A stretch of 33,448 nucleotides of DNA. It comes from a virus. Taxonomy: Duplodnaviria > Heunggongvirae > Uroviricota > Caudoviricetes. The first letter of the stretch is position 1; each line of letters opens with the position of its first letter. The stretch is taken from IMG/VR virus record IMGVR_UViG_648028025_000008. One strand, written 5' to 3'. Of the stretch, positions 3,001 through 6,000 are shown piece after piece. A program made the position numbers.

Positions 3001-6000
3001 TGTTTGCGCATTGATGCCGAGATACGCTTCCAGTCTTCGCGGTCGTTGTCGATAACTTCATTTTTTGCCCAGCGATGGATGCTGCCGTCAATGTTTCCGG
3101 CATCCACATCACCAGGCCAGAGAGCGTAGGCCAGTTCTTCATCCAGCGTTTTCCATGTCTGCTTGTATTCGCGACAAATGGCGGCAGTGACTGGGTTGAT
3201 TTTTCCTGCTGAGTTTTCAGTGTTCTGTTGATTGACTCTGGCGCTGGCGAGATCAACAACAGACGTGTATTTTCCAGTCTCTTTGCGCTCTGCGTCCTGC
3301 CGTTTTTTCCAGTTACGTAATTCAGCCTGAATTTCGGGCCATTTGGCACCCGGATTACATTTGTGTTTAACCCATCCGATAGCGAACAGTTTGCGTTCCG
3401 GATACATAGCGTTAATTTCAGGCGTTTTCATCAGTGCTTCAACGATATGCCCGTCAAAGGTAGCAACGTCTTCCTGCAGTAATTCCTGCGCGTCAATCGC
3501 CATATCAACGGTGATGTTTTCACATGTACCGAACTTAACCAGGACCGCGTTCTGTACTTCAAGGGACAGCTTGTCAAAATTGACGTTCATCGGATCGGAT
3601 TCTGGTTCGACCGGAATAAAGGAAGCGGATTCCTCATCCCAGCGGTTTTCCTGCATATATTCAGCATCCCAGGAATCGAGGGCAGGGCGGGGTATACCGG
3701 GTTTATCCTCGCAGACAAGAAATTTATAAGCGCAGTCCTGAGCAGCCGGATAATGTTCCAGGAATTGCCAGTGAAATTTTGCGCGGGCGCGACGTTCATC
3801 ACCGGCTTCAATGGCAGTGGCTACAGCGACGGCACCTTCTTCCTTTATTGCCTGTTCGTCCGGAATGGCGGCGCAAATAAAGACTTTACTCATTTTGTTT
3901 TAACCTCATTACAGATTTCAGGGTGAACGAATCCCTGCCATTGCTGGCATTTTTAATCCGTTGGTATGGCGTTAATATGGCTGGCGGGTTATCCAGCCGG
4001 TATTTCGTTATTCAGGTTCAGCGATACTTTTTTTAACGGGAGGCATTCACCGGGGATTTTTTGTTCGTCCCTTACCTGAATGCAGGATGACTTACTGTCA
4101 TAAATTCCGGTAATCACATTTTGTGGCTCACCCGTTATAAGAAAAACGGTCATCACCAGTGCAAATGCTGAAGTCACTGCTGTTCTCCGATAATACCAAG
4201 TTCAAGAAGGGCAATTCTGGAAAGTATGGAATTATCATTGAGAAGATAAGGTTCATATTTTCTCATCTTAATGGCATCTTCCGTAAACTCCCGGTTACTG
4301 AGCAGAACACCAATATCAAAACAACCTTCAGACGTATTAACGTTTGGTAATAACGTTTCCATTATCGCGTCCTCAACAATGAATTTTGTGATGCGGTGCC
4401 TGGTGCCTCCAGGTGACGTTAACCAGTTAACAATTAACGCCGGATACAGAGAATCCACCCATAACACTGTTTTTGGTTTTAACTGTTCCGCGTGCGCTCA
4501 GCCGCATTCACCACATCACAAAATTCACTTTAAAAAGGGCGGCAGAGCAGTCACGGAGTAAAACTGATACCGCCAAACGTCACCAGAAAATTGATAACAG
4601 AGGGCGTTGCAGCGGGGTTGTCACTTAAGCGTATGGTCAACCTGACAACCCGGTGTCCTCAACGGGGAAGGAATAACCCCTCCATACTTACCGCCGCGCC
4701 ATTTCGCGGATTGCCACAACCGGAAGCGCACGGTCGACGAAAATTTAACGACAGGCTATCTATGAACCAGCTACCTCGCCGTGCGCTTTCGCGTTATGGT
4801 CTGACTTTTCAGAGAAATATCCTTTCAGTAAACTGTCAGTGCCGGATGTTCACCCGTGTCCGGCGCACGCACTCCACTTCACCCGTGGAGAACTCCTTAA
4901 TTACCAACCCTCAGGAGGGTGAATGTTAAAATCAACTCTTATTGCTAAATGCCTTTATCAAAATCGCATGGTAAGCAGCATTTCAATAGGCGAGTCTGCA
5001 GTTAAAAGTATTTTCGAAGAGTACTTTCCCGGGCATGATTTTAATAAATGGAATACCAAATTACCGCCAGCAGTTTCAACGCGTATTCTGAAAGCAACCG
5101 AAAGAGCAAGTACAATTCGCGTTAACTATTTCATTAAAGATTTGTGGGATCTTTGATATCCACAGAGCCTAAAGTATGTGCATATGGATGTGCTATTATG
5201 CGCCCTCGCAGATTTGCATCATTTTCTAAATTCACTGAACGAAACAGGGCATCAACAAGGCTCTGTACAATGCAAAGGCAATCGAAGACTGTCGCCGTTT
5301 CTGTTTTGATTGATGAAAGAACATGGCCATTCACGCAAACAGAAATTACCCGTTTATTAACATCGCTTTCCTGCTTTTGATTATCAGAACCATATAGCCC
5401 AGAAAAAGCATTGCGCACATTACGAACCATATTATCGATGGTTTCTTTTTCTGCGGTACTAAGGTCAAGAGTAGCCAGTTGTGAACGAACTATATTCGAT
5501 GCCATTTCCTGTAATGGCGTTGGTAAATCTTTAAATTCCATTATTAGCCTCGTTGGTTAGCTATTAACGTGGGTATGTAATCATTCTGGCAATGCTTAAT
5601 GCCGCTGCTTTTTCCAGATTGGTGATATCCTGCTCCAGAGCGGACAGATTTTCAGCCTGCTTAGCCCTGGCTTCATTGGCCCATTTCAGGTCCTGCACCG
5701 CCTTAATTTTCTGGTGCATCCACTCATAAAGTTCATCATCGGTATAGTCTGGCGCGATGATGACGGGGTCTCGTTTCTGCATGTCGGCTCCTTGTGGTTA
5801 GCGTTGCCTGCTTTTTAACCACGTCAGGCGAGGTGGTATCCTCTGAGGGGTCTGTTACTCGAGAGGAAATTGGTTATGAATACAATCAAGTTTTCTTGCC
5901 CAGAATGTGGTGGCTAAGTCTTTGACACATCCTTTAAGCCGCAGGGCTCTGACAGTTTCGCGGGAGCCATCTGCAAAAATTGTGGTCACCTTGTAACTGA

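Follow-up and report, generated by a model that had tools for sequence, protein, structure and literature searches.

In Escherichia coli K-12, the processing of the dicBF transcript and the inhibition of cell division by DicB and the small RNA DicF have been published (PMC5069750, PMC10448788), with DicF being released by way of a 190-nt RNase III precursor and a 53-nt RNase E product (PMC10448788). The window analysed here, the whole 33,448-nt stretch of a tailed-phage record (IMGVR_UViG_648028025_000008), carries an early-left operon that resembles dicBF of the K-12 Qin prophage in the order and orientation of ydfC, a long untranslated leader, DicF, dicB and a ydfD-type gene, as well as in the DicA/DicC-type immunity region that stands over them. 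The identities to K-12 amount to 97.6% for the leader, 94% for YdfC, 61% for DicB and 48% for YdfD. Unlike Qin, the prophage looks complete and not cryptic, its downstream 823-aa exonuclease gene is intact, a 118-aa ORF (phrog_21318) occupies the place of ydfA and ydfB at the promoter-proximal end, and a 635-bp cassette is present.

A second point of comparison is sieB of lambda, Rac and P22, an early-left gene for which expression from the prophage need not depend on the early operon and which in lambda and Rac lies rightward, against the operon. However, SieB has about 190 aa and is a membrane protein, whereas the 77-aa protein that our cassette encodes against the operon has neither a hydrophobic segment nor a family match. 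By analogy, the cassette may also be set beside BstA/aba (PMC8585504), in which a prophage function active in the lysogen is combined with a linked element that spares the phage's own lytic growth. BstA itself is one large protein, and aba is an element of DNA within the BstA gene; the cassette has no sequence relation to them and no PADLOC match, and the analogy is one of logic only. The overlap of the oop RNA with the 3' end of cII is likewise a tail-to-tail transcript overlap in a lambdoid regulatory region, where pairing and RNase III cleavage are possible and have been described for OOP (PMC7067206), but oop is a short non-coding RNA, while the cassette encodes conserved proteins on both strands. 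Finally, a known cargo hotspot from another phage family and another site shares a fixed position, conserved flanks and many alternative, unrelated gene sets. The cargo between ydfC and the leader differs in consisting of very small genes of no known defence family, partly fused to a constant N-terminal domain. The cassette was unmentioned in the literature that we found on dicBF and lambdoid hotspots, and no mention of the RefSeq accessions of its 77-aa and 135-aa proteins was found in the literature either.

A dicBF-type operon with an additional gene pair

The window is 100% identical to PPompW-type prophages annotated with dicA, dicC, ydfC and a "cell division inhibition protein". Its stretch 3989-4909, together with ydfC (Table 1), belongs to an E. 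coli lambdoid prophage and makes up the distal portion of an early-left operon of the Qin dicBF type; the ydfD-like gene, DicB, DicF and leader found there are already known. The absence of ydfA and ydfB marks a dicBF variant and does not exclude this assignment, as many E. coli prophages vary at that place. The 77-aa and 135-aa genes, on the other side of the leader, are an uncharacterised two-gene cassette. We regard it as likely that the region singled out by the original prediction comprises two separate things, a known part of the dicBF operon and an uncharacterised convergent gene pair.

Table 1. Features of the early-left region, with positions in the window
Feature	Position	Strand	Basis or remark
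ydfD-like gene, 62 aa, DUF1482	3989..4177	-	Pfam PF07358; phrog_1092; RefSeq "DUF1482 family protein"
dicB, cell-division inhibitor, 62 aa	4174..4362	-	PF05358; NF049927
dicF-dicB intergenic stretch, 5' untranslated region of dicB	4363..4536	-	near-identical in K-12 and strain EC67
DicF small RNA with terminator hairpin and U-tail	4537..4588	-	Rfam RF00039
Structured non-coding leader of the dicBF transcript	4589..4909	-	DicF precursor region; conservation, folding, indels
Accessory cassette, ~635 bp	4910..5545	.	between ydfC stop and leader, not in K-12 Qin; three-way alignment
Shine-Dalgarno AGGAGG of the rightward gene	4913..4918	+	sequence; part of CTCAGGAGGGTGAA
77-aa gene, against the operon	4923..5156	+	homologues, codon-position substitutions, AlphaFold2
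Tail-to-tail overlap, 23 nt	5134..5156	.	both strands coding: ...IKDLWDL* and ...IKDPTNL*
135-aa gene, leftward	5134..5541	-	MEFKDLP leader domain and ~70-aa domain A
Domain A, residues about 61-135 of the 135-aa protein	5134..5361	-	conserved partner of the 77-aa gene
N-terminal ~50-aa MEFKDLP leader domain	5392..5541	-	joined to varied C-terminal parts
ydfC	5564..5782	-	operon gene upstream of the cassette; annotated ydfC
DicA-like repressor gene	6419..6826		

DicB was matched by both Pfam PF05358 (1.8e-37, 127.3 bits, cut-off 27) and NCBIfam NF049927 (111 bits, cut-off 100), and its frame sits inside a longer GTG-initiated ORF of 97 aa. The protein encoded next to it reached 56.4 bits against PF07358 (2.8e-15, gathering score 25), and its K-12 counterpart is annotated as "lysis protein YdfD". 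The GTG start of this gene overlaps the dicB stop codon by 4 nt (GTGA, 4174-4177), as is the case for dicB and ydfD in K-12, and the two genes may be translationally coupled. By Pfam match and position it is a member of the DUF1482/YdfD family, while a lytic activity is only putative.

DicF was recovered on the operon strand at full length (model positions 1-52, 76.7 bits against a gathering score of 48), and the stretch between dicF and dicB shows a single mismatch in a three-way alignment with K-12 and EC67. The leader is present in 4315 of 5426 complete E. coli genomes and folds with a minimum free energy of -146.7 kcal/mol, lower than that of all 100 shuffled sequences (z = -2.86). Since its variation lacks codon periodicity (41:42:49 over the three positions) and includes many indels, the leader is non-coding. 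A 112-aa plus-strand ORF within it (4591-4929) was discarded as non-coding as well, having no family match, no codon periodicity and many indels. Retrons, type III toxin-antitoxin RNAs and other RNAs were also considered for 4589-4920, but Rfam at E <= 5 brought up nothing beyond DicF and an STnc100-like match below threshold over 4330-4539 (38.7 bits, gathering score 47).

From what is known of the K-12 operon, the leftward transcript would start at a promoter under the DicA-like repressor and pass through the 118-aa ORF, ydfC and the 135-aa gene before entering the structured untranslated leader of about 320 nt. RNase III and RNase E would then excise DicF from the leader, and the transcript would either end at the DicF terminator or run on into dicB and the ydfD-like gene. 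On the strength of the identities to K-12, division inhibition by DicB and DicF and processing of the leader by RNases III and E are presumably retained here.

All four small ORFs of the original prediction were recovered at their predicted positions, as were the 23-nt overlap, the AGGAGG motif 4 nt ahead of the ATG at 4923, and the lack of RecT/Bet between the exonuclease and the small genes. A structured RNA had been rightly suspected in the untranslated stretch 4540-4920, which holds DicF and then the leader; DicB had been overlooked. The four ORFs had been described as visibly AT-rich, and their GC contents (0.43, 0.38, 0.36 and 0.40, in order) do lie below those of their neighbours (0.48-0.49 for ydfC and the exonuclease, 0.53 for the leader), yet they remain within about 1-1.3 standard deviations of the window mean (0.461; standard deviation 0.075 for 234-nt windows, 10th percentile 0.355), and far more AT-rich stretches exist elsewhere in the window (0.29 at 10501-10800). 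Profile searches also divided the proposal of one undescribed four-gene module: judged by homology to known early-left functions, it was refuted for DicB and the DUF1482/YdfD-like protein and stands for the 77-aa and 135-aa proteins. The idea of undescribed accessory cargo survives in the same manner for the 77-aa/135-aa cassette, but not for dicB, the ydfD-like gene and DicF, which are already described.

The convergent pair and its conservation

The product of the rightward gene, labelled "hypothetical protein" in RefSeq, has homologues of the same length, 77 aa, with 55-72% identity in Klebsiella, Dickeya, Xenorhabdus, Yersinia, Serratia, Morganella, Salmonella and Proteus, and the family comprises 103 clusters at 50% identity. 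Substitutions are in excess at the third codon position (1416:999:2597). The AlphaFold2 model is confident (pLDDT 96.7) and predicts a soluble, all-helical protein of five helices, in keeping with a GRAVY of -0.13 and the lack of a hydrophobic segment. No relative was found in PDB, BFVD, Pfam, NCBIfam or PADLOC, and no PHROG of assigned function matched. With no Pfam, PHROG-function or NCBIfam match, a length of 77 aa against about 190 aa and a soluble model, an identification as SieB finds no support. More broadly, none of the window's proteins matched PADLOC-DB 2.0 at E <= 0.1. A genome scan for distant homologues gave four loci, and a Psychrosphaera homologue of 43% identity stands alone, outside any prophage. 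Three single-protein scans of viral contigs for the contexts of distant homologues found nothing.

The 135-aa protein is built of two parts. Its N-terminal MEFKDLP domain is present in 992 of 5426 E. coli genomes and is fused in E. coli prophages to at least six unrelated C-terminal parts. Domain A, with the motif VxVNG...T..AVAADY...SLExEAN.SGKTI.H, forms the 3' end of the convergent gene in all complete enterobacterial loci and elsewhere follows varied N-terminal parts, YdfC-like and zinc-ribbon-like segments among them; it too shows a third-position excess (2028:1423:2957). The full protein had no match in Pfam, NCBIfam, PADLOC or PDB, a profile of domain A found no relative in PDB or Pfam, and a word-indexed search with domain A alone returned close E. 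coli relatives only. The AlphaFold2 model of the 135-aa protein is poor (pLDDT 43.7) and unusable for a fold search. A Phd/YefM-like antitoxin hairpin was considered for domain A, but it is unsupported, as the profile search against PDB sequences and Pfam was empty.

The 77-aa gene and domain A are real coding genes that are inherited together, always convergent, across enterobacterial prophages. The pair was found at every complete enterobacterial prophage locus examined, covering at least six genera, and the overlap measured 23 nt at all related complete loci (26 nt in the Yersinia type). Dickeya, Serratia, Yersinia, Proteus and diverged IMG/VR prophages keep this fixed overlap amid wholly different flanking genes. 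The two partners are unequally conserved, with a mean pairwise identity of 68% for the 77-aa protein versus 46% for domain A. Besides, the 77-aa and 135-aa genes are missing from K-12, where dicB, ydfD, dicF and the leader are present, and other genera have the pair but lack dicB and dicF; because each half occurs without the other, the two are inherited independently.

Within E. coli, the interior of the cassette (4923-5391) is found in 651 of 5426 genomes, O157:H7 strains included, and the site is polymorphic: it may be empty, or carry either a sense gene alone or a convergent pair, of which there are at least six different kinds. The block CTCAGGAGGGTGAA is common to the rightward genes of four cassette types (77, 91, 63 and 92 aa). 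The sense gene of the 124-aa type occurs without an antisense gene, with one of 73 aa or with one of 91 aa, and a 201-aa variant retains domain A but faces a different antisense gene of 63 aa. These combinations imply that antisense genes can be swapped independently in E. coli, which weakens the case for an obligatory protein-protein partnership. In addition, the sense proteins of 106/109 aa and 135 aa resemble the 124-aa and 201-aa forms with swapped tails. Against PADLOC-DB 2.0, the alternative cassettes gave noise only (E >= 0.006).

Expression signals and a working model

Consensus scans in E. coli, Serratia and Proteus revealed no convincing sigma-70 promoter for the rightward gene; a -35/extended -10 reading made by eye upstream of it falls below the scan threshold. 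In other genera, a conserved hairpin followed by TATCTT lies 30-60 nt upstream of the gene, and the E. coli leader contains a related hairpin. The element also reads as a terminator-like hairpin, and its stem is almost invariant, so covariation is uninformative.

Our best guess, offered tentatively, is that the 77-aa gene is a lysogeny-phase accessory gene whose partner is supplied by the early transcript. We speculate that it is an accessory "moron" that would be expressed in the lysogen while the early-left operon is repressed. Upon firing of the operon, convergent transcription and sense/antisense pairing over the overlap would shut the rightward gene down, and the same early transcript would deliver domain A as a partner or antagonist of the 77-aa protein. 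The pair might in this way serve a phage-conflict or host-modulating function with built-in self-control. Orientation against the lytic operon is characteristic of prophage accessory loci by transcriptomics (PMC7067206), and that of the 77-aa gene is one point for this model; others are the hairpin-plus-TATCTT element upstream and the sieB-like position and orientation. The points against are the lack of a convincing promoter, the swappable antisense genes, the stand-alone Psychrosphaera homologue, the poor structure of the 135-aa protein and the failure to match known families of defence proteins, toxins or antitoxins.

A broader reading, which we put forward as possible though on the unlikely side, is that the gap between ydfC and the DicF leader in dicBF-type prophages is a previously undescribed exchange site for tiny two-component conflict modules. 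Each module would consist of an early-operon protein, often with the constant MEFKDLP leader and a variable C-terminal domain, and of a convergent, 3'-overlapping small gene on the opposite strand with a shared translation start. Among these modules, the 77-aa/domain A pair would be the one of greatest age and widest distribution, providing exclusion or host control in the lysogen and an antagonist upon induction, and the right end of the K-12 dicF leader might be what remains of the region upstream of an antisense gene of this kind.

Alternative explanations

The two genes might have no partnership at all, the rightward one being an independent moron that settles at the 3' end of any early gene, with overlap and linkage as by-products of recombination. 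The E. coli variants speak for this explanation, as one type of sense gene is found with no antisense gene, a 73-aa one or a 91-aa one, the 106/109-aa and 135-aa sense proteins look like tail-replaced 124-aa and 201-aa forms, and at least four unrelated antisense genes have one common translation start block. However, the 77-aa gene and domain A remain neighbours, and overlap by the same 23 nt, even where their DNA has diverged to about 60%, and the pair persists although all flanking genes differ. Because pair and overlap survive both, neutral linkage is unlikely, and so we judge this explanation.

Rather improbable, in our estimate, is that the 77-aa gene and domain A constitute a toxin-antitoxin pair for addiction or abortive infection, to which the 3' overlap adds antisense control. 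Two small genes that remain tightly linked over a long evolutionary distance, with the unequal conservation noted above, would suit such a pair, domain A can persist without the 77-aa gene in the manner of an orphan antitoxin, and a related E. coli prophage has a ParE/PaaA2 pair in its corresponding early-left region. Yet neither the 77-aa protein nor domain A resembles a known toxin or antitoxin in Pfam, PADLOC or PDB, the convergent layout is unusual for protein-protein toxin-antitoxin pairs, the 77-aa protein has a homologue that stands alone, and domain A is fused to varied N-terminal parts.

The original prediction had grouped all four small genes into a single AT-rich accessory module, a candidate for a novel role in superinfection exclusion or anti-defence. 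Their GC contents lie below those of the neighbours and lambdoid phages do keep accessory early genes at this location, but two of the four are DicB and a YdfD homologue, DicF and a conserved leader of 320 nt separate them from the other two, and the halves occur independently; a single module is highly improbable. Finally, we give next to no credence to the 77-aa ORF having arisen by chance as an open frame on the antisense strand of the operon, for although the consensus scan found no promoter and RefSeq offers "hypothetical protein" only, this is contradicted by the conservation pattern, namely constant-length homologues across many genera in numerous clusters and the third-position excess, alongside a confident model and a strong Shine-Dalgarno site.

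Conclusion

In about 12% of complete E. coli genomes, the dicBF operon contains a further, conserved pair of genes. The polymorphic site and its alternative cargoes offer concrete and cheap candidates for new prophage accessory functions, and the 77-aa protein, a confident small fold without known relative, is a clean target for work on structure and function. Should the proposed two-component system, switched between lysogeny and induction, prove untrue, the present analysis would amount to an annotation refinement of a known operon; should it be true, the cassette would represent a new and very compact architecture among phage-phage conflict systems.

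The early-left operon and its dicBF genes

Eleven "PPompW" lambdoid prophages from Shiga-toxin-producing E. coli, LC567818 among them, match nucleotides 3900-5900 of the window at 100% identity. In their annotation, integrase and excisionase come first on the left, followed by the exonuclease, a hypothetical protein, a "cell division inhibition protein", two further hypothetical proteins, ydfC, another hypothetical protein, dicA and dicC. This identity and gene annotation place the ORFs of the original prediction in the early-left operon of a prophage whose immunity is of the Qin type (DicA/DicC). 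The exonuclease gene, intact in the window, is an annotated pseudogene in LC567818 (frameshift from a 4-bp deletion) and a remnant in K-12. All four predicted ORFs were recovered at the coordinates given, while the statement that none of their products resembles a known early-left function proved wrong for two of them, DicB and the DUF1482 protein, whose gene starts within the last 4 nt of dicB, an overlap also seen between dicB and ydfD of K-12. The dicBF part is a known, ordinary operon, and its mechanism is most likely the published one.

A structured RNA had been suspected at 4540-4920, and rightly so, since the DicF sRNA maps there and the leader, the conserved upstream stretch of the dicBF transcript, gives a more stable fold as operon-strand RNA than any of 100 shuffled sequences (z = -2.86). 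The leader is 97.6% identical to the K-12 stretch between ydfC and dicF and is present in 4315 of 5426 complete E. coli genomes. It is non-coding, with variable sites distributed 41:42:49 over the frame positions (132 sites, 81 distinct variants) and numerous indels. Both its folding and its non-coding nature agree with the literature, where a 190-nt precursor is cut out of the dicF leader by RNase III and the 53-nt DicF by RNase E (PMC10448788). Besides, the 5' region of dicB may be related to the STnc100 RNA family because of a sub-threshold match; a further STnc100 match and two tRNA genes lie elsewhere in the prophage, as does a sok antitoxin RNA match (hok/sok-type systems), which suggests a type I toxin-antitoxin locus.

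Features of the window discussed in the text
Feature	Coordinates	Strand	Remarks
823-aa exonuclease	1422-3893	-	C-terminal Rv2179c-like 3'-5' exonuclease domain
DUF1482 protein, 62 aa	3989-4177	-	48% identical to K-12 "lysis protein YdfD"
DicB, 62 aa	4174-4362	-	Pfam 1.8e-37; NCBIfam 111 bits (cut-off 100); 61% identical to K-12 DicB
STnc100-like match	4330-4539	-	38.7 bits (threshold 47); dicF-dicB intergenic stretch and dicB start
DicF sRNA	4537-4588	-	Rfam 76.7 bits (gathering score 48)
Leader	4589-4909	-	Non-coding
Hairpin GCCGGA...TCCGGC	4841-4864		Right end of leader
Direct repeat TTCACCCGTG	4849-4858 and 4878-4887		Right end of leader
Hairpin CTCCAC...GTGGAG	4873-4891		Right end of leader; same hairpin in K-12
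AGGAGG site	4913-4918	+	4 nt ahead of ATG of 77-aa ORF
77-aa protein	4923-5156	+	
135-aa protein	5134-5541	-	
YdfC	5564-5782	-	94% identical to K-12
AT-rich island	10351-10950		GC down to 0.29
sok RNA	11705-11854	+	Full-length, Rfam RF01794, 103.9 bits
tRNA genes	15138-15210 and 15304-15377	+	Rfam tRNA, 72.5 and 68.1 bits
STnc100 sRNA	16157-16329	+	Rfam 100.8 bits

A convergent gene pair shared by prophages of several genera

In a three-way alignment of the window with K-12 and EC67, another strain, ~4910-5545 proved to be an insert that separates the ydfC stop from the leader. This cassette carries the rightward 77-aa and leftward 135-aa genes, for which the predicted 23-nt tail-to-tail overlap and AGGAGG site were confirmed. 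Neither protein has a match in Pfam, NCBIfam or PADLOC, and both belong to PHROGs families of unknown function. The AlphaFold2 model of the 77-aa protein has five helices (pLDDT 96.7). The cassette interior occurs in 651 of 5426 complete E. coli genomes, O157:H7 strains among them, and homologues of the 77-aa protein with the same length and 55-72% identity were found in Klebsiella, Dickeya, Xenorhabdus, Yersinia, Serratia, Morganella, Salmonella and Proteus; the wider family (103 clusters at 50% identity) extends to Colwellia, Citrobacter and Burkholderia.

We compared the pair in prophage loci of Dickeya, Serratia, Yersinia and Proteus and in diverged IMG/VR prophage contigs. At all loci examined, the 77-aa gene runs against the early-left operon near the repressor and shares its last 23 nt (26 nt for the Yersinia type) with the 3' end of a leftward gene, whose product ends in ~70 residues homologous to domain A, the part of the 135-aa protein that spans residues ~61-135. 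The part ahead of domain A varies, being a few residues, a YdfC-like or zinc-ribbon-like segment or, in E. coli, the ~50-aa "MEFKDLP" leader. The flanking genes at these loci bear no relation to those of the window, and DicF is absent from them. In the Yersinia-type locus L085, the fused N-terminal CxxC...CxxC segment looks like a ClpX-type zinc ribbon. Fusions of YdfC-like segments to domain A in two other Yersinia-type loci (L009, L092) and in E. coli protein P0033 hint at a joint action of YdfC and domain A.

Non-coding features were also noted near the 77-aa homologues. The Yersinia frederiksenii prophage (L009) has a 128-nt tRNA-like match, longer than a normal tRNA, in the non-coding gap that separates the homologue from the early genes (4497-4624, minus strand; Rfam tRNA 38.5 bits). 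Some hundreds of nt upstream of the homologue, at L006 ~4530-4615, L008 ~4690-4780 and L009 ~4340-4430, long inverted repeats enclose a common TATACTGT motif. They read CACACAYCAGGTGGCG...CGCCACCWGATRTGTG in Serratia, and Yersinia has another sequence that takes the same shape; with differences that look compensatory, the repeats resemble a conserved hairpin or operator.

A polymorphic cargo site in E. coli

The interval from ydfC (or a DUF1391 gene) to the leader takes several forms in E. coli: empty in K-12, a sense-only gene (124 or 133 aa), or convergent pairs of 135+77, 201+63, 106/109+91, 133+92, 124+73 or 208+69 aa. The C-terminal parts fused to the MEFKDLP leader are of at least six unrelated kinds, and a gene of the MEFKDLP type is present in 992 of 5426 complete genomes. 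At its right end, the dicF leader has a start block, CTCAGGAGGGTGAA, common to four unrelated antisense genes (77, 91, 63 and 92 aa). None of the alternative cassette proteins has a Pfam or PADLOC match. The promoter-proximal end of the dicBF-type operon is also a cargo site, as E. coli prophage L095 has a PaaA2/ParE toxin-antitoxin pair between repressor and DUF1391 gene (1694-2172).

Proposed function of the cassette

Our analyses establish the anatomy of the cassette alone. In lambda and Rac, sieB occupies a similar place in the early-left region and runs against the operon. Because of this parallel, and because prophage accessory genes expressed in lysogeny are typically oriented against the lytic operon (PMC7067206), we tentatively favour, at rather less than even confidence, a function of the 77-aa protein during lysogeny. 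Upon derepression of the operon, convergent transcription and pairing across the overlap would switch the 77-aa gene off, and domain A, carried by the early transcript, would be a partner or antagonist of the 77-aa protein. Expression of the rightward gene is the weak point of this lysogeny model; consensus scans found no promoter for it. In other genera, a CCAC...GTGG hairpin followed by TATCTT is conserved 30-60 nt upstream of the 77-aa gene; a weak extended -10 promoter, a 5' stem-loop and a terminator-like hairpin are alternative readings of it. The repeats and hairpins at 4841-4891 resemble this element of Serratia, Yersinia and Proteus prophages, the hairpin at 4873-4891 being related to it, and may likewise serve as promoter, 5' stem-loop or terminator.

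That the pair stays linked over such divergence argues for a functional connection between the 77-aa gene and domain A. Conversely, the 201-aa variant keeps domain A with a 63-aa antisense gene in place of the 77-aa one, and the 124-type sense gene has no partner, a 73-aa or a 91-aa one, which limits a "cognate pair" reading. An independent moron without partnership appears unlikely, though it deserves more weight than a 77-aa/domain A toxin-antitoxin pair, which we consider improbable. That all four genes form one module, as originally proposed, is very doubtful. Their claimed AT-richness held relative to neighbours (GC 0.43, 0.38, 0.36 and 0.40, against 0.48-0.49 for ydfC and exonuclease and 0.53 for the intervening untranslated stretch), but they are no outliers within the window (0.461, sd 0.075 for windows of this size); the island at 10351-10950, the most AT-rich of the first 12 kb, is far more AT-rich. 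A spurious 77-aa ORF is scarcely credible: substitutions by codon position in its gene (1416:999:2597) show the third-position excess expected of coding sequence, as do those in domain A (2028:1423:2957). Of the two, the 77-aa protein is better conserved than domain A (mean pairwise identity 68% versus 46%). The convergent pair is real, uncharacterised and conserved, sits at a polymorphic site and is of moderate interest.
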